DNA of 61,623 nucleotides, filler included, from Sphacelaria rigidula (taxonomy: Eukaryota), in assembly GCA_964200075.2 (NCBI GenBank). It is 9 parts of 9 records of this genome, joined end to end, with 100 filler letters (N's around TTAATTAATTAA, not from the genome) between each part and the next. Parts side by side here need not be neighbours in the genome. Positions count along the whole stretch, not along the records: positions 48,008 to 54,765 come from CAXNAA020018226.1; 8 more parts are not named here. One strand, given 5' to 3'. Every line of letters begins with the position of its first letter. Within the stretch, counting starts at the first letter, position 1. A program made the position numbers and the translations under genes. This document shows, one piece after another, positions 6,760 to 61,623 of this stretch. Under the pieces are notes generated by a model. That model worked only from the letters and a program-made list of their open reading frames with translations. It did no database searches and was not told the origin of the DNA.

Positions 6760-6859
6760 NNNNNNNNNNNNNNNNNNNNNNNNNNNNNNNNNNNNNNNNN
6801 NNNTTAATTAATTAANNNNNNNNNNNNNNNNNNNNNNNNNNNNNNNNNNNNNNNNNNNN
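6760..6859. other. Artificial contig-joining spacer (44N + TTAATTAATTAA + 44N); identical spacers at 13618-13717, 20476-20575, 27334-27433, 34192-34291, 41050-41149, 47908-48007 and 54766-54865
   Basis: Eight identical 100-bp spacers lie exactly 6858 bp apart; TTAATTAATTAA gives stop codons in all six frames. Confidence 0.98.
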
Positions 6860-13256: not shown

Positions 13257-13269
13257 CGCGGGGGAGGGG

Positions 13270-13450
13270 GGGGGGCGTACATATTTGTTGCTTACCTTAG
13301 TCGTTTTACCATTGACCACCCATCCCTTTCGAGACGGAGCACAGTTCCTACCCCTAGTAGAGACACCTTCAACATTTAGTTGCTCATTACGTTTTTTCCA
13401 TACATTACACAAAACCTTTTACCTATCTTATCCCCATCCTGTTTCACGGG
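13270..13450 (-). mobile_element. LINE 3'-end fragment
   Basis: Homologous to 58760-58940 and 43520-43690 (cttagtcgtttgaccattgaccac..atccctttcgagacggagcac); encodes ...NVWKKRNEQLNVEGVSTRGRNCAPSRKGWVVNG. Confidence 0.7.
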
Positions 13451-43060: not shown

Positions 43061-46000
43061 ACGAATAACTACGTCGCCTTCTGCACCGCGGGGAAAGAAC
43101 CGACCGGGCATGACGGCAAGCAGCAAAAACGAGAACAGCGACACCGCCGGAAAACCAGAACGCTTGGCAACAACAGTGTACCAGAAGGCGGGTTCCGGAA
43201 AGAACATGTCTATGGAGCGCTAGGAATTGTACTCGAGATGGGGATCACGAGGCTCCCGCGGATGACCATGCATTGGGGGACGGGGGGGAAGCACAACTTT
43301 CCGCATGTCCGAAAGACTATGCCGCGCGATTTTTTTCTCCTCCTCATGTCGCGCTTCTTCCACCTCGCACCTGGTGGCCTTCCGCAGAGAGGGGAGAAGG
43401 GCTACGACGGAAAAGCACATATCAGGTATACATACTTTCAGAGAGTGCGGGTGGGTACATGTGTGGGGGGGAGGGGGGCGCGACAGCGTGTTTCCATGTT
43501 TGGCCCAGACGGCGAAACAGGACGGGCATTAGATATGTCAAGGGTTTTGTAATGTATGGAAGAAACGTAATGAGCACCCGAGCGTCGAAGGTGGCTTCAT
43601 TAGGAGTAGGACCGGTGCTCCGTCTCGAAAGGGATTCGTGGTCGATGGTCAAACGACTAAGGCAAGCAACAAGCGAGTACGCGTCCCCCGTTCCCCCCTC
43701 GACTTCGTGGTAAAACAGCCCAAACATGACCGAGAACCAGAGTTGATATCACATCTGTCCTGGGGTTGCCACCACCGGCCTCTGGTCGTTTTGGACGCGA
43801 GGATGTCTGTGCGCAGAACCCGGGCGCTGGCATCCCCCACCGTAACACAGAACACCACCTCCTAACCCTGTTTCGCTCCACAGGAGACTGGAGGAAATAC
43901 TGAATGGGGCGTGGAGTGAGGCTGCCGAGGTCGGGTTGTGGATAGCCTTCGACGAGCAGATGGTGAAGTGCACTGCAAGGGTTGCCCACTTCCTCATCAG
44001 GTTCAACAAGAACAAGCCCATCAAACACGGCAAGTGCTGCGTGTTTTGTTTGCAATAACGATTACGGTCTCGTTTCGTGCAAGAAGCTCGCACAACGGGG
44101 AGGTGATCGAGCAAAGATGACGTGTGTTGGTCTCCGTTCGCGAGAGCGAGATAAATATGACATCGTGTGGCCTTTACTGCGCATACAGCAGCCCGAGAAG
44201 CCCACGTTCATGTGCAGTCGCCCGGAGAAGGCTTTCTCAGCGTTATGTATACCGCAACTCCTGAGTAGGGTATCTTCTCATCTTTCCGGGGAACCTCCCT
44301 CCTTGTGATTTACCCCATCCGTGTGACTGCAGCTGACGCCGCGACATCGCTGCTCGCCTGTTTTCGTCGCTGGCAAATGTCAAAACGCTTCACACCGTGT
44401 CAAACAATATTTTGGAGGATGGAGACGGCTGCCGGGTCGTATGCTCGTGATGTTTCGTGCCGTAGTATTGACACCGATGGCGGGTGATCGGAGGGGGGGG
44501 ATCCGAAAATATCCGAGGCAAAAATGAACGCATGTCGCTTCATACGGCTCGCAGTCGGCAAAAGTAGGCGACATTTCCACATTGCCAGTCCCAAAACGTG
44601 ATTGCTGCCGTCAAGGGGGGGGGGGGAGTTACAGGACGGATGTGGGGATGTCTTGGTACAGTCATTCACACCGCCGCCGCACTCATTTCCATCTTCCAAC
44701 CGCCGCATCATTTATTCTTGTTTTGCCGAACCGCCATTGACTGGGACATGGGGTGAAGTCAACGTGAGGTGGACGAACATCGCACATGACGGAATTTGAA
44801 GTTTAGAACAGCTGTGTTCGCATGAACACAGCGTGTTTATGTAAGAAGCAATTCCAGACGACCCCTGACCGATTCAGACGCCACACTCGATTGAGTGCAG
44901 GGTCAGTATGTGCGCCGCATGTCTGCGCCGGGCACAACGACGCCAACACCTGGGCATGCCATCGCCCTCTACTGAACGCGGTGTAAGGTCGGGTGCTCAT
45001 GATTTTGCTAAACATTCCGCGAAAATTAACGGACAGAGCTTGTTGGCACAGAAGAAAGTGAGTGACACAGTAAAGTCCAAAATGCCGGTGTGCTACCCTC
45101 GCGCGTCTGGCAGGTATCAAGGTGTGGGCGGTATGTTGCCGGACAGGATATTGTTTCGTGAGCGTCGTGGACGCTGGCTTCGAAGGGGACTGCCACCTCA
45201 GCGACTGGGCCAACTGCCCTCTTGGTCGCACAACCCGAATGGTTCTGTACGTCCTTCTAAAAGCCTGTGATAAGTTCGGGCCGCAGCTCGAGCACACCGG
45301 GGTGCATGTTGCCATGGACAACTTCTTTACCTCCCCTATGCTCCAGCTGTGCCTCCTCACGCACGGCATTTTCAGCGTGGGGACTGTTCGAAAGAACAGG
45401 GCGGGAGTGGCAGGCGCGTTAAATTTTTGGCAGAGCCGCGGGTTGGAAGCGAAGAAGCGAGGGGATATGATTTTCGCGCGCTGTGGACAGCTGTCGTTCG
45501 TGTCCTGGATCGATTCCGTCCCCTTGCTCCTATCGTCGACTGCCCACGTGTACGAGGAACACCACCAGGCCATGGAGTACTCGTGAGTGATGGCGGATGT
45601 GGTGCGGGAGTAGGAGGAAGTTGTCGGCGATTACGTGTCTTCTATTGTGTCACGTGCATTGGTAGAGTGCCTTGTCCATGCACAACGGTTCTGTTTGTCC
45701 CAAAGTGGTCACCTATCTCCATCAGATACTACATGTATCTGTCGAAAATTCGCTGGCTTCCAGTACACTGCTTCCCCGAGGATGCCGTACCCCAGGTCTT
45801 GAAGCTCGGCCGTTTCGAATCGCTCCGGTCTCTGTAGCGAATCGCAAGATATCTCGTCACGAGGAAAATTCCTCACTACGATTTTTTTATTTCAAGCGAT
45901 ATACTCGAGTGAAGGTCGCGGATGGTGTCTGCAAAATCCTCAATCGGGAGAATACCTTACAATTATGATATGTGCAATATGCGTGGATACGGGAATTCCC

Positions 46001-47907
46001 GATATGCATGTGTATATATGCTGTGGCTGTCGTAGTCATGGATGGGCTGCGAAAATCGTTAGTTGCAGTTTTTGGTCGGAGGGTGAAGAAACATGGGCGA
46101 TGACCATTTCTCCCCAGCCAATGCTAGTGGGTATTGTGGCACAAAATTTACACGATGAGCGTTGCAGAATTCCCCCGCACCCAAGAGCACCTGTTGTATT
46201 CCGTGAAATAATGTAACGATTCAATATATCACACTCCAGAGCATCGGACCAACCCTAGGCATATGGATTTTTACTCGTTCCCTGTCTCTTCCTTTCATAC
46301 CAACAGCCGCTGCAGTTTCATGATGAAAGCTAGTTCGGAGCAGTGACTACCGTTGCCCAAGGCCGTGGTGTTCGTTGTGCATGGTTCATTACAAACATGT
46401 CAAAAACGGTATGCGTAGCGTGTCTGGTGTGACATCATTGGTCGTTGGTTTGATGGCAGGGGTCTTGTGGCTACTGTTCACGTGTTTGTTTTGGACTTGT
46501 GCTGATGGTACTCCTTCGCCGTAGGATCACTGTACCCATCGTTGCAGTCGTACACTACCGCTGTTGGCGGGCCCACGTAGCAAAAATCCCAGCAAAAATC
46601 CAAGGGTATGTCGAGTACGGTACGTACTTTCAAGTAGGCGAGTAAAATACTTAGGTATTTCCTTTACTCGACGTTTGAGTAATAATCCACTCAAATTTCA
46701 GTAGGGCGAGTAAGGCCTCCAAAACTCTACTCAAATTTTCGTCGATAGAGTACGACCTCAAATACTTTACTCAAATATTGAGTAAGCACTCCCAGTACTT
46801 CTTCGGTGTCGGGTATCACTCGAGTATGACCTCCATACTCTAGTCGAGTTTCGACTAGATCGAGTACGGCCTGAAATACTCTACTCGAATTTTGAGTAGA
46901 TGGAGTACGACCTCGAATACTCTAGTCAGGATTGGGCAAGCACTCTCCGTAATACTGGAGTACAGAGTATCACTTGGTTATGACCTCATACTGTACTCAA
47001 ATTTCAAGTATGTCGAGTACGGCCTCCAATACTCTACTCAAATTTTCGCAGATCGAGTACGACCTCAAAAATTTCATTCAAACATCGAGTAAGCACTCCT
47101 AGTAATTCTTGAGTGTAGAGTATTACTAGGTTATGACCTTCATACTCTACTCAAATTTTCGTACATCGAGTACGACCTCCAATACTTTACTCAAATATCG
47201 ACTAAGCGCTCCCGGTAATTCTTGAGTGTAGAGTATTACTTGCGTATGACCTCCATACTCTACTCAAATTTCGAGTAGATTTAGTACGGTCTCACAAGCT
47301 CTACTTGAATTTTGAGTAGATAGAGTACGACCTCGAATAATCTTCTGAAGCATTGAGTAGGCACTCTCAGGAATACTCGAGTATAGAGTATCACTTGAGT
47401 ATGACCTCAATACTGTACTCGAATCTCGAGTAGATTAAGTATGATCTGAAATACCCTACACGAATAATTGAGTAAGTTGAGTACGACCTCAAATACTCTA
47501 CTCAAACTTTGAGTACTAAAAGTATGACTTCGAAAATACTGAGTGTTGAGTATACTCTACTCGACCCACCCTTGCAAAAATCGTTGTGCATGGACCAAAA
47601 TGTGACATAACAGCAATGGTGACAGCTACACCAGGACGCACCACTGTTCACCCGGTGCCAACCGCCTTCGCGATTTCCTTCGCGACTCCGTGCTTTCATG
47701 GCTCCCTCCCATCCCCCATTTGCACAGGAAGCATGTGTCCGGGAACAACGGGCAGAAGGTACTCGGCCAGCAGCCACCCCATCGCGCGGACTACGTGAAG
47801 TACATGCGCGGCGTCGACGTGGCCGACCAACGGAACGCCGCCCACGCCACTGATCACAAGCCGCAGAACTACTACTGGAAGAGGCCATTTGAGAACAAGT
47901 TGCGGCA
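43061..47907 (+). CDS. piggyBac-family (DDE_Tnp_1_7/PGBD-like) transposase, spliced, partial
   Basis: Phase-compatible exons 43061-43425 (HW...MPRDFF...FFHL), 43884-44029 (AFDEQM...NKPIKHG), 45114-45582 (IKVW...MDNFFTS...GTVRKNR...SWID) and 47728-47907 (YMRGVDVADQ). Intron 2 has a GC donor (gcaagt). No stops or frameshifts in these exons. Confidence 0.9.
43520..43695 (+). mobile_element. LINE 3'-end fragment in intron 1 of the piggyBac gene
   Basis: Reverse-complement homolog of 13270-13450 and 58760-58940. Confidence 0.7.
46601..47574. mobile_element. CAAGGG-TIR non-autonomous transposon with internal tandem array (about 40-bp units, about 154-bp higher-order period)
   Basis: Termini CAAGGGTATGTCGAGTA / TACTCGACCCACCCTTG; TSD CAAAAATC on both sides; unit gagtacgacctcaaatactctactcaaattttgagtagatc. 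Confidence 0.9.
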
Positions 47908-48007: not shown

Positions 48008-50013
48008 CCACTGCGCGAGATTTGCTGCCTGCTGGTTGTTTGCTGCCTGCTGGTTGCGCCGTTGCAAGAAACGGCACTCTTCGTCGCTGTGGGTTGTTGA
48101 CATGTGGAAGGAACACCACTTGCCCTCTGTCCTATTGTTCTTGTCTCCCCCTGTCAGTGCTTGGGCCGCGTTTCGAGCGGGGCACTTTCTTTTGACGTGG
48201 CCTCGCTTTCCGCAGCGGAAACACACTGTGCGATTTCTTCTGCTATCACGACTTCCACTGGTCTGCATGGCGACCCCGCGACCTGCGACCAAGTTGATGG
48301 CATCTGGGCGAGAGAGATTGTCGGTATACATGGTGCTGACCATGTATCGGATATCCGCCAAATTAAAATCACGCCTCTCGCAGCTAGCAACACGAACCCT
48401 TTCTTACTCGGCAGGCAGGGCTCGGAAGATAATGTCCTCGTACCGCTCGTCGGGTATACCTTGTCCCATTTCATCTAGGCGATCACGGTAGCCGTCCATG
48501 ATAAACAGGAAGTCTTCCGGATCATCTCCGGACTGCATCGTTATGTTGTGGAGTTTGTCGTGGAACTCTCTTCCTTCCTCTTTGCTGTTGCCGTCAAACT
48601 TGTTGTGCAGCGCTGCCCACGCTGCTTGTCCGTTCCCAATCCCATCCTGTGGGGTTTTCCCCATGTGATGTCTGACGGTATTGTTTGCTGATTTTACCGT
48701 GCTAAAAAGCAGAATACTAAACAGATCATTGTTTGCACGGTCCCACGCCACTGAAGTTGTCGTATCACAGGGTGGTTGGTCATCATCAATTACGGTGGGC
48801 CTGGGTCTTTGCCGCGCCTGCAGGATTTCTGCGACCGCACTGTGGTGAAGGGACAGGATCACCCGGAGTTTATCTTTGAATTCCCGGAACTCGCTTTGTC
48901 TCTGCCATCAGACTTTTGACAGAGTTTCAGTACTCCTTGAATACCCTCATTGTCCGCCATGTGAATCCTGTTCGTTGCTGTGCTCCAACGTCACGAGTAA
49001 AGATAAAGGATGTTCAAGTATAGGTTCCCCACCACACAACCGGCTTGCTCACCGCCGCTTGAGTTGTCGGTAGCGCAAAAATAAATGTACGCAGATTAGA
49101 AGCAATGGGAATGGTCCCCCACCGCTGCAGCGTCATCCGGAGATGCTGCTTAGCGTTAATATCTGCACTCTTTTCGACAGGATATTGATACAGGATGTTG
49201 CATAAGGCGCAGTGGCTGTGCACTTCGAAAGTAGACGCTTACAATTTCCCCTCAAAAGGATCCGACTACTGACCGTTTCCCCAGGTCAGCCCTGATGTCA
49301 GGCGCGCTGTTGTCGATTCACCTTCCAAACATAGATCACACACACTACTCGGTTCCAGTTGTGGTCTCCTGCTGTAGCGCCAGACGAGGACAGATTCGTG
49401 CCGTCGCTGTTGCAGGGTTACTACCGTACCGTGCTCTACGATTGTCCCGCTTTTTCAACATTACGTATTTTACCGGGTGCGCACAGAAAAGTGCCGTCCT
49501 CACTTCGTGACACACTGTCGCAGTGCCAGTGCCAGATCCACACAGATGTAGTGCCGTCTTTATGTTGACTCAACTCACGTTTTTTCCAGCAAAGATCCTT
49601 CCTTTTTTCTGCTGTCTTCCTTCTTCCAAAGTTCGCTCCGTAAACGCCAGCGACGAGGCTCATTAAACCTGTTAGAAAAGTGTCGCGATTGCCCCTTTGA
49701 CGTGATCGCTAGAGTTGGCGCAATGGCACTTAAGCCAAGCAAGAAGACAAGTTGCTTTGGAGTGTAGACAGAAGATGATGTTCAGGGTGCCTCTTGCGGG
49801 CACGACAGTCCAAACAACCCACCGTGTTGAACGGTCAACCGAAGAGAGTGCTTCATGTATCACAGCTGCTATCCCACATTATACGCCCCCACATCAGACC
49901 AAACCTTCGTGACCGGTACCTGCGATCCCAACACTACATATATATATATATATATAAAGCCAATACCACACGAAGAGTTGAAGAGCATGGCTCCACAGGC
50001 TCATTTTCTAACA
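48008..50013 (-). mobile_element. Ty1/Copia retrotransposon 5' fragment: LTR 49670-50013, PBS and degenerate gag
   Basis: LTR ends TGTTAGAAAA...TTTTCTAACA form a perfect 10-bp inverted repeat; Copia-type PBS GGTTTAATGAGCC is adjacent; gag has GQAAWAAL...IFRALPAE* and a CFRCGKRGHVKRKC knuckle. Confidence 0.88.
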
Positions 50014-50325
50014 GTCAACATCACGGAAGGTATGACCGCTGCAACCTTCTGATTTTCAAAACAACGGGCAGGTGAACCCGGAAGCACCCACTTGTGCGGT
50101 GACATGTCCGCACGTCGCCCCTGAGAGGGAAGGTTGAAGATTTGCCGGGATGTGCACCGTACGTGCTGATGCCTCCACACAACGTAAAAAAAAGACGCCG
50201 GGACATTCCCCCGCGCGCCGACCCCCGCACATCTCCCAGTCCATCACACATCACACCCATTCCATCCAGACAGTCAGTAAGCCACAGCTAGCGCGATCCT
50301 GATACTCGACCTGTAGTACAGCGGA

Positions 50326-53300
50326 ATGGCCGTGGCTCTCAGGGTCGCCGATGAAGGCGTTCCACCCTCCCCCCTCGATACGGCAGGGGTCAACAGTAAG
50401 CTGGAGGCTTGGCTGCACGATCGGCACATTGGTCTTTCAACATCCCTCTGAGCCAGCTGACTCTAACGTCGCTGTCCAGGGAACTGAATCCGCGAGGACT
50501 ACAAGACGTCATGAGGTCTTTAAAGGTGAATGGGTGGCTTACTCACAACCCACCAGCCGTCGTACTTAGCAGCGAGGCAGGTGATTTGGTCACTACTGAG
50601 GCCATGGCAGGCGCTTCTTTTCGCGTTCTTGACGCAACCACCAAGTCAAAGCAGGACCGCGCATCTTCGGGCTGGAGAAGCGTATACCATGCTATGTGTA
50701 CAGAGATATATCGGCCAACGAAATGGGCATTATCGGAGACGGTGAGCCGTACTTTCACACCTGAAATCGCATCTTGTGGTTTGGTGCTCGGCAGGTGGTT
50801 GTTCTGATTTCGCAGTAGTCTGCACGGGGTCAGCCCTTCCCCAAAAATACTCCGCACCTCCCTGCGGTGGGGAAGTGGAATCGATCCGAGCAAACAATTT
50901 TCGTTTTGATGCAGTTGGGTGCATGTGGATTTTCAAGCTTTGGATCCCAAAATGACAGTGCAGCTTTGCAAGGGCAGGTCGGGTAGAGTATACTCGATTG
51001 CGGGATATTTTGAAAGTCGTACTTACAGTACACAAATTGACGGTAGGGTTTTAGCCCGGCTTTTACGGCAACGAATCCCGGTTTTTACGAATAGGAGGAT
51101 TTCAGCCCGTCTACAGGCGATTTTCTCCCGTGGATTGATTTTTCGGACCCCAGTCCGTTGGGATCGCGCTCCAGTTATTTTTTGGGTACGACTCCGAATA
51201 CTCTACCCTAATTTGAGTACCTCAAGTTCGTCTTGCGAAATACCCCGCAATTGAGTATACTCTACTCGACCTACCCTTGCAGCTTTGTACTGCCTGCTTT
51301 GTCCATGAGCGTGCACGCAACTCGGGTGCCCACCGTACTACGCAGTTTCGTCCCTGATGCCTGCCATGAGAGAAGATGCGCAAATTTTCGCCTACATATA
51401 AAGTACACAAAGCACATCCAACTACTGTAGTGCATCTATCCTTGTGCTCAACTCGTGCTCTATGCTGCAGGGTTGCGGTCGTAGCTGAGAATGAGTTGGA
51501 TGGAGTTTGAAAGATCCTGTAAACAGGTGTTATTTGGCGTATCGGCGTGTTTGTGTTGAAATCAAGCTCCATTTTTTTCATAAACTGTTTTTTTTGTTTT
51601 GAAGCCCCGTTTCAAGCTTTTTTAAATCAGGCGTTCTTTATGCGCCTTATTTCCGTCCTTGTTGTGGCGTTGTAGCAGTATCCCCTCACGAGGCGCGCGT
51701 TCTAGCATGAGGGCAAGACGACAAGTTGGACATTCGAAGTTTTGTTGATTATTTACAATTAAGAAATGGAGATTTTCCTCAGTTCTTGAGTTTGGAGCCC
51801 ACAACCTGCACACCGACTTCACGAGCCATCATCCCCAATCAACCGTGTCAAAACGTTCCCTCTCCGCATATCCATGTCGGCACAACGACGCAGCCTTGAA
51901 CGAGGTAGGAGAGACACTGTCAAAACGGAAAAATTACGATAAACTTTATATGTTCATGGAGATCATCGGCTCCATACAAGATCGTACGAAAAAAATAACG
52001 TCGGAGCGGAAGCGATTGCAGAAGAGTTTACGAAGGTGAGGGGGAATCTGAAAAAGTTCTCTTTCGGAGCTTATAATGATTTGCTCTATTCGTTGGGGGG
52101 GTTCCAGGACATTTCCTCATCCTCCGGTGGCCGTAGTTTTTATTTTCACCAAAAATTTTAGTTCAAGAACAGTCGAAAACGGTCAAATACAGAGAAATTC
52201 GCCATATTTCTCTGGACTTGACCCTTCTTGGACAAAAACTTTTCTTCGGTCAATATAGAAACTGCGGCCACCGAGAAAGGGGGAAATGTCCTGGACCCAC
52301 CTCAATGAGTGGAGAAAATCATTGCAAGGTGTCAAATTCCGCCTAGCTCTCTGTTGAGGCGTAAAACTATGCCAAAGCTCCAAAAATGCAGTTTTCCAGG
52401 TTTTGATTTCAGTTTATTATAAGAAGCGGCCTGAGTGGCGTGCTTGTGTAGGTCGGAGTATATCGTTTCACGAGACCGACACTGCTGCTGTACAGCATTG
52501 CTGACCCCACTAGAGTGTGGCGTGCACTTTATGACACAGACCATGATGCTACACCCTACACTACGGTCCGACGCGGCAGTCGGCTGCAGGAAGAGTACAA
52601 ACGCCTGCTCTTTCGGTTCTCACTCCAATTGTTGCCAGGGCTCGGGTGTGAGTATATGTTTGTATCCACATGTGAGCAGGGGTGACCAGCCCATACAATC
52701 CGCACCCCACTGCGGTAGCGTGCGAGAAGCGGCCTCGGGGCAGTTGCTGTCGCCAACACTTTCTTAGGCTAGTTTCTCCCACTCTGACGACTTCCACACG
52801 GTCGCGGCTCGCGGAGAAGTTTGTGTCGCCACCACACCTCGTTGGCACTCGGCATCGCCTCGATTGGCTGGGAATTCCGAAAATTCGATCAATGAAGATA
52901 CTAGAGAACGGTTGATGGCGTTGGATTACGCCCGGTTATTCTGCCCGCCTGAACTCCGTATTGTTCGTCCACTGCGCTCTGTCAGCGCGCGCGGGGTAAC
53001 TTGAATCGCGTGACGATGGCCCGAGCAAAAACAAAAATGCGCGACAGTAACACATGTTTCCTTCGTCCGCCAATGCGTGTCGATACCCCTGCCCCCTCTT
53101 GAAACCGACAGCTGCACGTGCGGGTCCCGTCCATGACGACTCTGCGGCATTGGAAAAAAGCGGTTGTGTCGACATCGCCAGAAGCGATGATGGCCTTCGC
53201 TTGGGCGTTTCAATGCGACAACCGTGGCGTTGACTCAGGAGCCATATCCCCGGCTTTCCTCGAAAGCAACTAGTACACAGACCTGCATGATAAACCCCAG

Positions 53301-54010
53301 GCCCAAGCCATCGCGATCAACATGCTCGTCAGGTACACACCACCTGTCTGATGCGGCCAGATAATCCCATGGCCCTTACTTTATCGCATCTTGCGCTAGG
53401 GTGAATCGCTGAGGACTTCGACGTACGATGCGTAGTGTATCGCACCCGAACCCGACGCCCACAAAAACACAGACGCTGACCTTGCATCGCTGAGAAACGC
53501 GCTGGAGCGGCCTCCCCCCAATCACACACCGCTCGACATGGATCATGGAATCGCTCATTGCACATCGGCGATTATGACCGTTTTCAGACGAGAATGTTTC
53601 TCATCAACATCGGGCTCTTGTACATTCAAGATCCCGTGGAAAGGTCTCCGAAAACGAGAGCACCAGACAGAATTGCTGTTGGGCGGGATACCATCAGTTC
53701 CGCAATATGCGGTTTCCCTTGGTCCCGTCATGCAGCACCGAACGGGTGCAAAGTCTTGTGTACTCTTCACAGCACACATTATATATTCGCGCTGCCTACA
53801 GGTTCTAAACGGCGAACAAGACGAATCTCAAAGCGAATGACTGGGGAAGTATCTTCACGGATGTTGCCTGCAGGTTCTAAACGGCGAACAAGACGAATCC
53901 CAAAGCGAATGACTGGGGACGTATCTCCACAGATGCACAAACAGCCGCAACCCTCCTGGAGCGTTCAGAGAGGCAGATTCCTTGTGAGGCGTGGACCGAC
54001 GTCTTCGAAG
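50326..54010 (+). pseudogene. Spliced ParB/Srx-fold N-terminal domain plus putative HTH protein, pseudogenised
   Basis: Exon 50326-50741 with frameshifts repaired: IPLSQL...RELNPRGLQDVMRSLKVNGW...PPAVV...FRVLD(G)NHQVKA...IPCYVY; it joins in phase to exon 51894-52035 (ALNEVGE...VGAEAIAEEF). Further exon-like pieces at about 53180-53332 and 53800-54010. Confidence 0.65.
50969..51279. mobile_element. CAAGGG-TIR MITE, 8-bp TSD, in intron 1 of the ParB-like pseudogene
   Basis: TIR CAAGGGCAGGTCGGGTAGAGTATACTC / GAGTATACTCTACTCGACCTACCCTTG; TSD CAGCTTTG on both sides. Confidence 0.9.
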
Positions 54011-57000
54011 AGTAAGTTTGCATTAATTGTAACACGCGCGTCGACTGGGGTGGACCGTAACGGTTGTCGCAGGCAACAGTATTTCGAAAGTAAGGATTGC
54101 GTGTGCAGCACATTTTTGTGTCACGCTTAGGTTTGTACCCCTTATGCTAGCACACGTTCTGGCATCATTCCACCTTGCATAAAAAGCGTAGCGTTTCAGC
54201 AGGTGGCATAGATAGCGCAGCGTTTCAGCAAGTAGTGTAATCGATAATAAATTTTCAAATTGGGGGCATAATCGAGCATAACTTTTCCAGTAGAGTGGCA
54301 ACACTGGTCTAAATGTAGACGTGGTGTGATATTTTGGGGTCAAACTCTGCTATCATCGACCGCGGCCGGTCTGAAATACGTGAATGCTGAGGAACCAGTC
54401 ATTGAAACTGCCGGTCTGATTTTCATTTCTTTGATTCACTTCATCTATGTAAATGTATATTCACTGCATATAGTTTATGTGTAATATGCATGTAGTGATC
54501 GGTGGGTCTGCATCCGGTCGAACATGGCGCGCTTGTTGGATATTGCGAGCATAATTGAGCATAAATCCCATCTTGCGAGCATAAATCGAGCATATATTTT
54601 GTGAAAATTCGAGCATAAATTGCACTCCACGAGCTGAGTCTTTTGTGAAATTACTAGCATCAAAAAATGACTTTACTAGCATGAGGGGCAAAAGCATAGT
54701 AACGCTCAAGGAATGTATTTTGAGTCATCCTACGATAGGGGGGGGGGTGTTTTGGGCCATTTGTTNNNNNNNNNNNNNNNNNNNNNNNNNNNNNNNNNNN
54801 NNNNNNNNNTTAATTAATTAANNNNNNNNNNNNNNNNNNNNNNNNNNNNNNNNNNNNNNNNNNNNTGGCGTTACGGCGACCTGGTAACAGACGTTGGCCC
54901 CAGTTGTCAAAGGAGAAAACGAATTATTGGTAAGGAGGTCATATGTATGAAGAAACAGCCTGGATCTTCCACGGTCGCCTCCTCCGGGAACACCGGCTTC
55001 ATCGTGCACTCGACGTACAGGCTCCTTTGGACAACAAGAGACCCCGCATAGACGGTAGAATACCACCACTGGTGAACGTTTTCCTGGTGCTGCCGTACGA
55101 AACGAGTGTGCAGTTCATTTGGCAGATCACCGAGTATCGGTGGAGAGCATAAATTACGGCGAAATGATTCCGTAGCGAATACTGAGTCTCACGAAAAGCA
55201 GAAGTGGGGTACTCGCAGTGATACTTCCTCTTGACTAGTGTTTGCATCATACTACTCTGTGCTGTAATGCCACTGTCTGTATTGTACTGCTGTGCTGTGA
55301 CGACACTGAACCTGCCTGCCGGTCGCGAGGGTGACTCGCTTTGTGTCCGACTAGGGGTGAGCAGGGGATGCGGGGTCAACACGAAGCCGATATATCCCCT
55401 TTCTCATTTTGATCTCTGTTGACTTTCTTCCTTAGCTTGCGACCTTAGAGATGCTCCTAGCCGTGTTCGTGGCATGTTCTGCGTTATCCTTACGTTTTAT
55501 TTCTTTAAGTCATCAAAGTTGCCTTGCCTACACAGAAATGCAACAAGTGACGCGAGATGGGCATTTGGAAATCAAACGATCCAGGTTTGAGCTCTCAGTA
55601 TAAAGATGACTCTGACAGGGACGTACTTTATTCAGGTTCTACGGCGGGTTCGGCGTGTCTCCTGTCGTCTGAGAGCGCATGGGGCGAGAAACGATAGCTC
55701 CTCACAAGACATGGGAGGACTTACGAAATCATCTTCCCTCCACAGGCGCATTCAGTGGCGCGAGTTTCACATTATGACCTGACATTCGGTGTGAAAATGA
55801 CCGTCACAGGGCCGTATTTATTTGGGGATCTGCAGCAGGTTCTGCCGTCATCTGGAAACGCGACATCGACCTTGGCATGGCGCAGGGGACGTTAGCTGCT
55901 TGAAGACAAGTAGAGCTTATGAAATCATGTCGCCTACACAGAGATGCATCAAGTGGCGCGATATTCGCTCTGTGAGCTGAGATCAGTTTTTGAGAGTTAA
56001 TCAATCAACGGGTGGTCCCTCGGAATCAAATCGACGCACTTTCTCAATTTAGGATGAGAAAGTCCACTCCCCTGTCGGAGCTTGTGAAATACACAGAGAT
56101 GCATCGAGAGGGGGAAGATGCGCATTTTCAGCTGAGATCGGAATTATCGATCAAGGGGTAAGGGCCTGGTTTGTCGAGACGAAAAAAGAAGCGATCAAAA
56201 AGAACCGAGCGAGCTAGAAAAGTGTGCTCATTGGTTGGCCACTGCGATACCACCCCCTCCCAAGGAAAAGGAGCGACGCTTTTTTATATGGTGGCGGCGC
56301 TTCTCCAAGAAACAGCGGCGCATTTTTCTCATAACATATTGTGGAGTTCTTCAGGCTATTCTCCGATACATTTCATTGGGCGTTCTTCGCTTCAAAGAGC
56401 AAAATGAACTAGCGGCACAATGGCCCATGCTGTGGTACACACCTGTCACACAGCCCAGACCTGAGGCATATGCTCACAACACATCTGATCTCACTATCCC
56501 AGGATAAACGATGAGCTAGTTGCGCCATATCTGTTTATCAACTGCGCACGACTTTTTCGGCTCCAAAAAACTCAGTTCAAAATTGAATGACACACGGTGA
56601 TTTGTGTCAGAGAGGCGCCGTGTAGCACACTCCAAAATGATGACTTCATCTTGGAACGACCTCATTTGTTACACGCACACGGCCAGCCCTCTTCCAATGC
56701 CGAACGGGCTGCCGCAAATCAAACCGTGCTGTGGATTTATAAGCAAGAGCTGGCGCCATGGTCGCGGCAACGAATCGACATGCTACGTTTGGACGCTTGT
56801 TTCGTGTCTCGCTTCTGTTTTCGTCTCGATGAGACACGGCGTGAGGGCCCATCTTAACGGGATTGAAGAAAAAAGCGTAGAACGAAGCAGCATGATGATT
56901 GGTCGCCGTGCGGGTCTATGGTTGCTGCGACAACGTGCTGCTTTGCGGCGCTCATTTCGTTTTACGCTTCTTTATTTTGTCCCGTTAACCCTCCGATTGC

Positions 57001-57426: not shown

Positions 57427-58754
57427 CTGATATCCGGCCGTGGTCATATAATAGACGCCCCTGAGTTTGAGGCAAAACGGAAACACTCGATGAAGAAAAT
57501 AGTAGAGTGCAGAAAGGAGAGCAGACAGAAGACTGAAAGGAAAAAGAAAGAACAAATTACAACAAAGAGAAGACAAAGTCAAATGTAGAGAGAAAATGGC
57601 CGGCTTTTGCAACAAGGCTTCGGTGGAGAAGGTCTTGCGCAAAAGTACACGCTCGGCATATCGAAAAACACATTGTGTTCAAAACACTGCTACAGAAAAT
57701 GTGAAGCCATAGTGGCAACACAAGAGGGGTCAGGCAGGCGGAGAAGACTACGGGCAGAGTAAAAACCACATCGTTTGTGCCTATGCTTCTATGTTTGAAT
57801 GACCATGACCCAAATAGTAAAACACTGCTAAATTTCGAGGTAGCCCCTCGCAGTTCATCTGGGGTGACTATTCTGACCAATCGTAGCTATCAAATGGCCA
57901 CTCGGCTACCCTCGGGCCTCATTTGGCTTCGAACTCGTCGAATCTTCCGTGGGAAAATTCCAAGTACACATGGTTGGCTTAGCGAGTCACTCACCTGTTC
58001 TGCGAACAGGTCCCCACTCCCTCTCGAAAACAACTCCTCCGCCCGCCGGAACCCCCCGGATGTCCCTGGACTTCCACCTTATGAAACTATTCCGAGGCGA
58101 CGCTCGCAGTCAAAGAGTAAACCCGTAGGCAGCGAACCCCCCTAAAATGGACTCAGATAGCCTATAGTAGTTTCCCGCTGAATCAGGAGATTTCTAAAAA
58201 CATTATGTAGTTGACGATCCCCAATAGGTTTTTCGTGTGCCGCCCCTCATCGCAGTGAACGTCTGATACTAAATTTCGGAGATCGATTAATGTTAGGCAT
58301 ACGCTCAACACTCCGAAACAGAAATCATATCTGCACTTCATACCGGACGACTTAACGGGCTGACCGGTCCTTGGGGGTCCTATGATTACCCAGCCACAGG
58401 CTCTGACCCTTGGGTATTTTTGCTCGATCGAAGCAACCCCGATTGTCCTCGTGAACAGATGGATTTTTTTCTAATCCATTTTTTTAATTCATACCTATTA
58501 ATTGCGCTAGAGCCGAAAAACTGTGTTTTGTTTACCAGTGACGGTCGATAGCACCCCCTGATAAACGAGGCCCTCACTCTGTATCACCCCGACAACACCA
58601 ATTCGAGGATCGTGTCTTGAGCACCACCTGCTTATTTTTCCCAGTATCTATCGACTCTACGACTTTAGAGTGCTCAGGAAGAATCGTCTGCGAGAGAATT
58701 CAGAAGAAGTACCCGATCACAAAAATTGCTCAACCGAGCTCTGTATAGCACGGG

Positions 58755-59165
58755 AGGGGGGGGGGCGTGCTCACTTGTTGCTCGCCTTAGTCGTTTGACC
58801 ATTGACCACGCATCCCTTTCGAGACGGAGCACCGTTCCAACTTGTGATAGAGACACCTTCAACATTCCGGCGCTCATTACGACGTTTCTTCCATACATTG
58901 TGCAACAACAGTTCGCGTACCTTATCCCCGTCCTGTTTCACAATCTGTGGCCATCATCCATCTCCTATCATGGCCATCGTTCCACCTCCACTTTCAAATG
59001 CATCAAACGATTTCAAACCACCTTCATTCGCGTCCCCCGTTTCCCTCTCTAGCCCATCCCGTTCCTCCTCGCGTAGTTCACATTCTGCCACTATATGAGT
59101 TCTGCTCTCGATCGCTTCGCCACAGGGGCAATTCTGTGCATCTACACATGAGGGGGTGAACCCAT
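58755..59165 (-). mobile_element. Non-LTR retrotransposon (LINE) ORF2 3' end with CCHC knuckle
   Basis: CPCGEAIESRTHIVAEC knuckle followed by ...NVWKKRRNERRNVEGVS...APSRKGCVVNG; shorter 5'-truncated copies occur elsewhere in the window. Confidence 0.8.
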
Positions 59166-59658: not shown

Positions 59659-60580
59659 CAAGGGTAGGTCGAGTAGAGTACACTCAATACTCGGTATTAA
59701 TGAAGAGTCATACTTTCAGTATCCGAAGTTTGAGTAGAGTATTTGAGGTCGTACCCAACCTACTCAATTATTCGAGTAGAGTATTTGAGATCATCATCAG
59801 TCTACTCGCAATTTGAGTAGAGTATTGAGGTCATACTCAAGTGATACTCTATACTCAAGTATCACTGAGAGTGCTTACTCAACATTTGAGTAGAGTATCT
59901 GAGGTGGTACTCGATCTACTCCAAAGTTGAGTAGAGTATTGGAGGCCGTACTCAACGCACTCAAAATTTGAGTAGAGTATTGAGCAATGCTGCGGTACGG
60001 GTACACTTTTCCCGCAAAATATTGTCTGGTTCAGGAGCTCCTAATAATGACTCTAGATGCACGAGAATATGGCCAGGGCATCCCCGTTTGCGAATTCATT
60101 CGGGATATCCCCAGCACATGGAAGTAGTAATCCTGGCGTACTTTACATATTATCATAAGGGGTGTTTTGCATGAGATCAAGGGCTCCTAATAATTCTAAC
60201 CTCAGAAAATATTTGTGCACCCCTACCGTAGCATCACTCTATTTGAGGCCATACTCAACGTACTCAAAATTTGAGTAGAGTATTGAAGTCATACTCAAGT
60301 GACACTCTATACTCAAGTATTACTGAGAGTGCTTACTCAAAATTTGAGTGGAGTATTGGAGACCGTACTCAACCTACTCAAAACTTGCGTAGAGTATTTG
60401 AGGCCGTACTCAACCTACTCAAAATCCGAGTAGAGTATTGGAGGTCGTAATCGACCCACTCAAAGTTTGAGTAGGGTATCCGAGGCCGGATCCGATGTAC
60501 CAGAAACCTATAACTTCAACTTCAATATTCAAGTTCGTACGCAAGATACTCAAACTCGGGTAGAGGAAATACCGAGTTAT
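59659..60580. mobile_element. CAAGGG-TIR tandem-array element (opposite orientation to 46601-47574); right end not found; more array at about 61310-61510
   Basis: Starts CAAGGGTAGGTCGAGTAGAGTACACTC; units tactcaaaatttgagtagagtattgaggtcg. Confidence 0.8.
59982..60239. mobile_element. GAG...CTC Sola2-like MITE nested inside the CAAGGG element
   Basis: Homolog of 8253-8509; TSD TATT on both sides, cut from a gagtatt array unit. Confidence 0.85.
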
Positions 60581-61623
60581 TTCTAGAGTTGTCCACCCAT
60601 GATGAGTGTTGATTCAAGGTCAAACTTCAGCAAACACTCGGATCAGAACCAAATGGTACAAAACTAGGGTAGAATGAATGTCGGGGTATTGTCGAAGGGC
60701 GTTCGGATTGTAACGCGTAAAACTGGCGGGGGTACTGCAAATCGTCAAAATCATATCGAAGGATGGGCAGTCGAAGTCTTGTGTATAGTCCATACCCGGG
60801 CATCCGGACACGTCACTGGGGGTGTGACGCGTTTCACTCGCCTGCAAGTAGGGAAAAGGGGAAACAGCTGATGATGACGAAAGGGGCCATGAAGCACATG
60901 ATGACAGCGCCACAGAAAAAAAATCAGGATTCACAATCTGTCAAGCACACACGACAAGAGACGAAATACTCATTTTGATAATACCTACCTACTCGACTAC
61001 TCGGCTACTCGATTACTCGACGATGATGAGTAGCGCTCTGTACTGAAAGTGATTTCGAAGGCATTGCGAGGTATGGAGTATGAACTGCCGTGGGTGGGGG
61101 CTGGTGAGATGGGGCGCTGGGGCAGGTAGGTTTATTCACCTGCACGCTTTCTTTATTTTTTTATGACCATCATTCGCTCAAACTTCTTGTTGGCTGTGAT
61201 GTAACGCCGCCCGTCTGATTGATGGTCATCGTTCGCCCATGTATTCAACATTGTCTGTGAAGTGACGTCAGGAAGTCGCCGACTGTCAGGGATATTCACC
61301 ATACCCAAGAGGTACTCTATACTCAAGCATTTACGAAGAGTGCTTACGCAATATTTGAGTAGAGTATTTGAGGTCGTACTCGATCTACTCAAAATTTGAG
61401 TCGAGTATATGAGACCATACTCGAGCTACTCAAAATTTGATTAGATTTTTCGAGGCCTTACTCGACCTACTCAAAACTTGAGTAGAGTATTGAGTTCATA
61501 CTCAAACTTGTGCTTATGGCTGTCCCTCGAGAGGCCGCCAGATGGAACGTTGTGATTCTTAGTTATTTGGTCGGCGGTATTTGGGGCCTTGAGTCTCGCC
61601 CCCGTAGTCGGACCCTGTGTTCA

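Follow-up and report, generated by a model that had tools for sequence, protein, structure and literature searches.

A dead ParB-type gene, probably the accessory gene of a giant Sola1-type transposon, in Sphacelaria rigidula

The gene at positions 50326-54011 of the window, the whole stretch of 61,623 nucleotides that was analysed, is very probably a dead accessory gene of a Sola1-type element, whose ParB-type product would bind DNA and act in trans. The element is a giant (about 17 kb) cut-and-paste DNA transposon of the Sola1 type, and the window copy is a dead, doubly truncated relic of its accessory gene. The window consists of unrelated contigs joined with N spacers about every 6.8 kb, and the gene lies on contig CAXNAA020018226.1 (48008-54765).

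The gene in the window copy

The gene has the ParB/Srx fold and starts with an ATG at 50326; four of its exons, with GT-AG splice sites, are found on the plus strand. They lie within a transposon fragment that has been interrupted by other repeats, and the features of the contig are as follows.

48008-48907: gag remnants, belonging with the Copia-type retrotransposon
49670-50013, minus strand: Copia-type LTR (TGTTAG..CTAACA), an insertion lying 312 bp before the ATG and parting the gene from the transposase half
50014-54722, plus strand: internal transposon fragment (4.7 kb out of about 17 kb), interrupted at either end by another insertion
50326-50741, plus strand: exon 1, encoding the N-terminal ParB/Srx domain, with 1-nt frameshifts following 50434 and 50633 and with DGNHQ for DGNHR
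50742-51893, plus strand: intron 1, GT-AG, phase 1, with a high-copy inverted-repeat insertion (about 50956-51292) seen as a read-depth peak
51894-52035, plus strand: exon 2, GD/ALNEVGETLS junction, conserved Asn (ALN), first helices of the HTH-like region
near 51988-51994, plus strand: 1-nt frameshift in exon 2
52036-53111, plus strand: intron 2, GT-AG, phase 0, containing an inverted repeat inserted at about 52070 to 52330-52400
53112-53332, plus strand: exon 3, putative recognition helix TTLRHWKK and a helical region; in-frame TAG at 53271-53273
53874-54011, plus strand: exon 4, in-frame TAA at 53878-53880; acceptor doubled by a 72-bp tandem repeat (53793-53935)
54012-54722, plus strand: intron 4, cut off at 54722 a short way before exon 5

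The initial annotation had proposed an intron-containing ParB/Srx gene at 50326-54010 with a phase-1 GT-AG intron, and both proposals are borne out. All seven splice sites checked keep the GT or AG dinucleotide, both in the window and in the paralogues that could be mapped at the site, the exception being donor 4 in one of seven. A genome search with exon 1 returned 41 candidates, of which 35 match at E ≤ 0.001, and exon 1 is open in several; thus the gene call is not due to chance. The window copy was also rightly called dead. It carries two in-frame stops and three 1-nt frameshifts, each the loss of one base relative to two paralogues (following 50434 and 50633 and around 51988-51994), and its nucleotide-binding motif is broken by the second of these frameshifts together with an Arg to Gln change (DGNHQ). 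Intact paralogues had been anticipated as well; open first exons were recovered in several copies, but no fully intact copy was found.

In other copies the gene continues for at least five further exons. The Cys/His exons, the methyltransferase-like exons and the right end of the element are missing from the window contig. Parts of the gene are covered by contigs from three presumed-RNA runs of a single study, and two of these contigs stop at 50739-50741 with unaligned tails; no joint of exon 1 to exon 2 was present among the 15 joints listed (136 further) in these contigs.

A probable giant Sola1-type transposon

The window fragment is 84-92% identical to many contigs, which run on beyond both of its ends. 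Positions 50014 and 54722 had been considered as element ends and were shown to be insertion points, the latter being where a second repeat insertion cuts the window copy; a candidate left end, located 2.3 kb before the ATG, turned out to lie inside the element. In longer copies the ParB gene lies head-to-head with a DUF7869 DDD transposase gene, about 1 kb from its first exon, inside terminal inverted repeats. A divergent second conserved exon is found upstream in 28 of the 35 exon-1 contigs, and the ParB and DUF7869 exons occur on opposite strands in four contigs (C20587, C5190, C4772, C4463). The DUF7869 (PF25273) matches range from E 2.6e-23, in the window's own subfamily, to 6.5e-19. The transposase exons hold ..ADA.., DNC..EN.N and GH[TN]H..ID, a motif set which we take to be of the Sola1 type; the literature search returned no paper naming DUF7869.

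The inverted ends read AACAG..CTGTT. At the right end, all 29 non-self loci share a single boundary, and a 26-nt end pattern has 618 matches in the genome against none for the control. This end is identical at the right ends and beyond the transposase, where at least five contigs, among the 100 matches listed, carry it facing inward 2.7-2.9 kb beyond the DUF7869 exon. The length of about 17 kb is a sum over three overlapping copies, no single contig covering the whole element.

Flanks of the ends follow ANNT in 15 of 42 cases against a background of 5.9% (A at -4 in 27/42, T at -1 in 26/42). A perfect 4-bp target duplication flanks two of four short two-ended copies and is lacking in the other two; the perfect duplications were seen on short copies, not on a full-length element. 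Sola1 elements are described as having 4-bp target site duplications with an AWWT preference (PMC3845634). Assignment to Harbinger, suggested by right-end flanks fitting a 3-bp TNA target, was dropped because copies with both ends have AACAG termini and 4-bp duplications. The suspicion of a mobile element in the initial annotation is therefore upheld by the inverted ends, target flanks and transposase.

Protein domains and their origin

An AlphaFold2 model built on a paralogue alignment (A1) of open paralogous exons (pLDDT 73.7) supports the conclusion that the N-terminal domain has the ParB/Srx fold. The top Foldseek match of this exon-1 model is the ParB structure 6sdk (E 7.8e-6), with PadC and Srx also matched, and VIA-align places it on PadC with Z 10.0 (rmsd 3.7, 96 aligned). 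The 12 best of 13 VIA-align rows are, judged by title or known family, of the ParB/Srx type. PHROG ParB-like phrog_4715 (E 8.8e-4) was the only profile match for the ParB exon, Pfam gave no ParB_N match on window or paralogue exons, and PDB sequence searches gave nothing significant. Thus, the ParB match foreseen in the initial annotation was obtained with the structure of the paralogue-exon model, but not in Pfam.

The ParB/Srx nucleotide-binding motif is G-x-x-R-x-x-A. Among 165 homologous proteins examined, 103 bear the motif, as DGNHR in 85 and with Ala three places later in 71. The ParB domain is followed by an HTH-like region: in the Atlas model of P0001 (pTM 0.54), residues 19-301 align with HTH_ParB clusters of the Spo0J type at TM 0.58 and 0.59, values below the threshold at which the tool names the family, and an HTH profile search gave no match.

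The Srx structures among the fold matches could be read as pointing to a host gene, for chromatin or redox (sulfiredoxin-like) functions, with the repeats as segmental copies; endogenous phaeoviruses occur in brown algae, and an endogenous giant virus could be invoked in the same way. Sulfiredoxins carry their catalytic Cys in G-C-H-R, however, and the present family has DGNHR, with only one DGCHR among the homologues, so that sulfiredoxin identity was rejected. Against both sources stand the sharp common end with unrelated flanks, the inverted ends, the target duplications and the transposase, and the scan of viral contigs gave one 34-residue match to the motif only. A host or viral gene is thus largely refuted and very improbable. 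Donor searches of prokaryote genomes (0 of 106 candidates), metagenomes (0 of 586) and phages (no match at a useful E) were likewise negative. The prokaryotic or viral ancestry proposed in the initial annotation is accordingly plausible from the fold neighbours, while no donor was found at the sequence level.

Full copies run on into a Cys/His-rich region and then into an N4/N6-methyltransferase-like domain, for which a methyltransferase fold is weakly supported. Three exons align collinearly, if weakly (E 2e-4, about 0.06 and 0.045), with the C-terminal domain of a homologue from Cladosiphon. The ESM features of that homologue give a match of 0.92 on 160 of 256 features, below the tool's mark of 170, and its ten best family matches are all PF01555 or its clan. 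The assignment also leans in part on what we take to be the motif layout of these enzymes. The methyltransferase-like region gave no Pfam, PHROG or PDB sequence match, protein searches with it returned the query alone or nothing, and the AlphaFold2 model of the full-length homologue P0042 (6-row alignment, pLDDT 41.6), an uninformative one, had no Foldseek match at E ≤ 0.001. The initial annotation's expectation that a DNA methylase might accompany ParB is to this extent weakly supported.

Beta-class methyltransferases canonically carry a catalytic [DS]PP[YF] motif and a SAM-binding F-x-G-x-G. Across two subfamilies, [DS]PP[YF] was found in none of 26 readable segments (30 found), 20 having SLDA or SIDV, and F-x-G-x-G in none of 35 (37 found), with L/M-G-V/I-G-x-E in its place. 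Alternatively, the protein might be an active enzyme, a ParB-methyltransferase placing 4mC or 6mA on the DNA of its element through altered catalytic motifs; this is possible but doubtful. Such activity would fit the conservation, across the two subfamilies, of Ser and Asp in the catalytic strand (S-I/L-D) and of a G-x-G at the SAM loop, the purifying selection on the methyltransferase-like exons, the phage ParB and N6_N4_Mtase fusions among the structural neighbours of P0001 residues 19-301 (TM 0.52-0.56), and the N4mC/N6mA product predicted for the Ectocarpus protein in PMC12477816. The absence of the canonical motifs argues against it, as do their different loss in the Cladosiphon homologue (CLNRAP; TFTAES) and the genome search for PF01555, which found nothing while 13 of 14 controls were positive.

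Selection, mechanism and known systems

Between subfamilies that are 40-55% identical in protein, the position, introns and motif of the ParB gene are kept, and the gene is kept in other brown algae too. The dN/dS ratio is 0.14 for the ParB exon (6 pairs), 0.39, 0.13 and 0.17 for three methyltransferase-like exons between subfamilies and 0.10 for the transposase, from pairs that are not independent and with dS near saturation for two exons. As the canonical motifs are gone and yet dN/dS is 0.13-0.39 between subfamilies, the sequences suggest that the methyltransferase-like domain is a conserved pseudo-enzyme. Within subfamilies, singleton ratios of 0.43-0.87 indicate near-neutral private changes in some exons, and most copies are broken. 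This decay would also be expected of passive cargo, a ParB gene captured once and copied without helping the element in the manner of Pack-MULEs, and PMC12477816 describes giant elements some of whose genes have no known use. Such passive carriage is nevertheless improbable, given dN/dS well below 1 between subfamilies and the conservation of position, introns and motif among subfamilies and other brown algae.

For the preferred reading of an accessory gene with a trans-acting product, the following mechanism may be proposed. The ParB and transposase genes would share one bidirectional promoter, and the spliced protein would bind the DNA of its own element through the HTH, with the ParB domain acting as a nucleotide-gated dimer or clamp. 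The protein may then aid the element in trans, in transpososome assembly or by keeping chromatin open; such help would account for purifying selection while the element spreads and for the neutral decay of individual copies like this one. The C-terminal domain would derive from a beta-class N4C/N6A methyltransferase and may now be a DNA- or protein-binding module. Within this explanation it probably no longer methylates, a point held with little more than even confidence. Against this mechanism, no parS-like array of palindromes was found: their counts lay mostly within shuffled ranges in 11 element stretches, being somewhat above them in two without a recurring word, and no dispersed 11-mer (up to one mismatch) occurred in any of four stretches, where decayed copies could hide a weak array.

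A bolder and rather unlikely proposal is that Sola1 elements encode a ParB-type sliding clamp with a pseudo-methyltransferase and a PHD-like Cys/His finger, which shields the element from histone-based silencing. The clamp would load at the element ends or promoter and spread along the element, in a lineage without DNA methylation. If true, it would make the protein a ParB clamp in a eukaryote, and an anti-silencing factor of another kind than VANC.

The genes nearest in fold are those of bacterial ParB/Spo0J, Noc, KorB and PadC and the phage fusions of ParB_N with N6_N4_Mtase, which share the N-terminal fold and the G-x-x-R-x-x-A motif. The present family differs in its 9-25% identity to them, below Pfam detection, its spliceosomal introns and its added Cys/His region; unlike bacterial ParB, it has no ParA partner in the copies examined and no parS-like array. 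In eukaryotes, the 'chlorophyte-type Dam' methyltransferases of chlorophytes and chytrids also join a ParB-type module to an amino-methyltransferase of prokaryotic or phage origin (PMC4738411; Iyer et al., 2016). They fuse a ParB-type HTH to a group-2 (DpnM-like) enzyme, whereas the present family has a ParB N-terminal domain, and its nearest methyltransferase family is PF01555 (beta class). A parallel in red algae is PAG3, an accessory gene of Plavaka (EnSpm) transposons whose product has a ParB-like domain at its N-terminus and a domain of a nucleic-acid-modifying type at its C-terminus, and is proposed to bind the element that encodes it (Petroll et al., 10.1101/2025.02.11.637652). There the C-terminal domain is a 2OG oxygenase rather than methyltransferase-like, the transposon superfamily is another one, and tandem inverted repeats adjoin the gene; no such repeats were found here.

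The closest system is Sola1-1_Ec32 of Ectocarpus (Dinatale et al., 2025; PMC12477816), with a ParB-like and N4C/N6A methyltransferase gene opposite the transposase. This kind of gene is thus already published, with a predicted function, and the system is not uncharacterised as the initial annotation had it, since the ends, flanks and transposase found here are of the Sola1 type. Sola1-1_Ec32 is similarly a giant brown-algal element with a 4-bp target duplication and the ParB-like and methyltransferase-like gene on the strand opposite the transposase. Its termini are AACCG..CGGTT and those here AACAG..CTGTT (both AAC-x-G), its length is 21.5 kb against about 17 kb, and its duplications are 'biased towards ending in A' where the flanks here are A..T-biased. 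An N4mC/N6mA product is predicted for its protein, which is 1104 aa long, and the motifs are eroded here, a comparison that uses the published description.

The present family extends the Sola1 ParB-methyltransferase accessory genes to another brown-algal genome and several subfamilies, all below Pfam detection. Its 'methyltransferase' may have lost catalytic function while staying conserved, a point relevant to the proposal that proteins of this kind would methylate the transposon encoding them. DNMT1, DNMT3 and DNMT5 are reported missing in brown algae (PMC13076208), so that any DNA mark or clamp encoded by an element should stand out there on a blank background.

Structure and decay of the gene copy

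The feature is real: it is a fragment of a dead transposon accessory gene, of a type already known. The window joins unrelated contigs of ~6.76 kb by N spacers (6760-6859 and seven more, the last at 54766-54865), and therefore only 48008-54765 is real context of the gene. The gene starts with an ATG at 50326.

Exons of the window copy
50326-50741, + strand, exon 1
51894-52035, + strand, exon 2
53112-53332, + strand, exon 3
53874-54011, + strand, exon 4

The introns are GT-AG, with phases 1, 0 and 2 in order. The peptides quoted in the initial annotation are present in the window sequence, and its phase-1 intron behind exon 1 is borne out by splice sites kept in paralogues; seven sites checked in seven paralogous contigs were conserved wherever mappable, with a sole exception at donor 4. 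The copy is indeed dead, as proposed: relative to two paralogues one base is missing behind each of 50434 and 50633 and another near 51988-51994, stops occur at 53271 and 53878, and the nucleotide-binding-site motif reads DGNHQ.

The exon-1 peptide matched 35 of 41 candidates in the 244-Mb genome (identity 88% down to 40%), which fall into at least four subfamilies. Many paralogues have an open exon 1 with DGNHR, in line with the suggestion of intact paralogues as far as exon 1 is concerned. When 1.84 billion representatives were searched with a profile, 153 hits came back, two of those scanned being low-complexity noise. Ten hits were looked up, and all six that carry a name are brown-algal (Sphacelaria, Pylaiella, Ectocarpus, Cladosiphon). 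DGNHR is found in 85 of the 103 homologues carrying the motif. Database gene models read through the exon 1-exon 2 junction as GD/ALN, AD/ACN or AD/NCN (slash, junction), and genomic ORFs terminate just past the same G-D. Exon 1 of P0001, a database protein of exons 1-4, matches locus L011 letter for letter; P0001 is thus not independent support and, judging from this identity, may be an annotation of the same genome. No spliced reads were seen for the gene among the joints listed from sequencing-run contigs.

Fold of the N-terminal part

An AF2 model of exon 1, built from eleven open paralogous exons (pLDDT 73.7), has ParB 6sdk as its best structural match (E 7.8e-6), followed by PadC, Srx, Noc and KorB. 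By VIA-align the Z score was 10.0 for PadC and 9.0-9.6 for each of SerK, Srx and KorB. These matches agree with the ParB/Srx fold first proposed. A PHROGs search also returned a ParB-like family (E 8.8e-4), and most of the length of the P0001 Atlas model aligns with clusters of Spo0J-type ParB+HTH proteins and phage ParB-MTase fusions (TM 0.52-0.58). Pfam gave no match for the ParB exons of the window or its paralogues.

The surrounding transposon

Window positions 50014-54722 show 84-92% identity to many contigs, which run on past both ends. The fragment is cut upstream by a Copia LTR (49670-50013) and, where the contig ends downstream, by a further repeat. The Copia-type retrotransposon 5' part (48008-50013, - strand) has a 344-bp LTR (TGTTAG..CTAACA ends), zf-CCHC and, left of the LTR, gag remnants; for many genome copies the similarity is confined to the LTR part.

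Other copies share a sharply defined right end: all 29 non-self loci break off at one boundary, in most reading ..GAATCCCCTGTT, with unrelated DNA beyond, and the end pattern has 618 genome matches against 0 for the control. Among 100 end matches listed, the same end faces inward 2.7-2.9 kb past the DUF7869 exon in at least five contigs, one of which (C7706) also carries DNA homologous to the window. Summing overlapping copies gives an element of ~17 kb. ANNT flanks occur at 15 of 42 ends (background, 5.9%), and perfect 4-bp duplications in two of four short two-ended copies, the other two having none. AWWT targets are described as the hallmark of Sola1 (PMC3845634).

In 28 of 35 ParB contigs the ParB exon is preceded, ~1 kb upstream and on the opposite strand, by a conserved exon; beyond it, on the same strand, are exons with three acidic DDD-transposase motifs and Pfam DUF7869. 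DUF7869 and ParB exons stand head-to-head in four contigs, among them C20587 of the window's own subfamily, and transposase dN/dS between subfamilies is 0.10. Shared sharp ends, inverted ends and a transposase in the copies support the suspected mobile element.

Related and other repeats
L009:872-1285, L036:6339-6762 and L198:702-1119 (genomic loci), non-autonomous elements of ~415 bp with the same AACAG ends, probably a good part of the 618 matches
58752-59065, 43559-43699 and 13257-13398, repeat also found within an intron of several full-length copies (e.g., contig C4249, 10855-11180), where it is a nested insertion common to several copies
45074-45586, + strand, piggyBac-type transposase fragment (PF13843, E 1.8e-10), on a different contig from the gene
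46682-47515, 59732-60488 and 61345-61503, arrays of a 41-42-bp repeat (TACTCAAAA..GAGTAGAGTA) recurring across contigs

The 3' half and known accessory genes

Longer copies of the gene go on with one helical and one Cys/His exon, followed by three MTase-like exons. The last three correspond, in order, to residues 594-650, 654-723 and 777-812 in P0042, a Cladosiphon homologue of 843 aa, each alignment being weak (E 2e-4, about 0.06 and 0.045). The Cys/His pattern (L054:3320-3580, - strand; P0042 residues 425-469), which separates the helical from the MTase-like part, resembles that of a PHD or RING finger; Pfam gave no match for this region and the RING match was non-significant (E 0.61). Language-model features placed the P0042 C-terminal part at 0.92 to PF01555 N6_N4_Mtase clusters, a kinship that is a lead only. 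Profile searches of the MTase-like region (Pfam, PF01555 in the genome, PDB sequences) were blank, and the full-length P0042 AF2 model gave no usable structural match. The gene models P0004, P0161 and P0164 (Ectocarpus, Pylaiella) end in an acidic or basic tail and have no MTase-like domain, possibly through model truncation; all three are labelled partial.

The catalytic motif and SAM loop are taken to lie where the beta-class layout would place them. In two subfamilies the former reads SIDV or SLDA ([DS]PP[YF] in 0 of 26 readable segments) and the latter G-V/I-G-x-E (FxGxG in 0 of 35). Between subfamilies dN/dS is 0.39, 0.13 and 0.17 for the three exons and 0.14 for the ParB exon (six mid-distance pairs), calculated from stop-free copies alone, with non-independent pairs and dS close to saturation in two cases; private changes of the accessory gene within subfamilies give 0.43-0.87. 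The domain is thus eroded in its motifs yet constrained between subfamilies, which is the point most deserving follow-up. No report of motif loss in these algal proteins was found in the literature covered, which was thin for subscription journals.

Around the gene layout, first-domain fold, constraint and window-copy decay observed here, a mechanism can be proposed. The ParB and transposase genes would share a promoter, and the HTH would bind element DNA, with AAATGAGGTT sub-repeats in the element ends as candidate sites. The ParB domain may act as a nucleotide-gated dimer or clamp, the MTase-like domain would be non-catalytic, and the protein could work in trans, for transposition or anti-silencing.

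Related accessory genes include ParB-HTH-Dam fusions (PMC4738411) and PAG3 of red-algal Plavaka elements, which is flanked by tandem inverted repeats (bioRxiv 10.1101/2025.02.11.637652), whereas no dispersed recurring palindrome was found in the Sphacelaria element copies. The first reading was largely correct on fold and mobility, but the system is not uncharacterised: Sola1-1_Ec32 (21.5 kb, AACCG..CGGTT ends, 4-bp TSD) is described in PMC12477816 as carrying, opposite its transposase, a 1104-aa gene of the same kind, with a ParB-like domain and a predicted N4mC/N6mA MTase.
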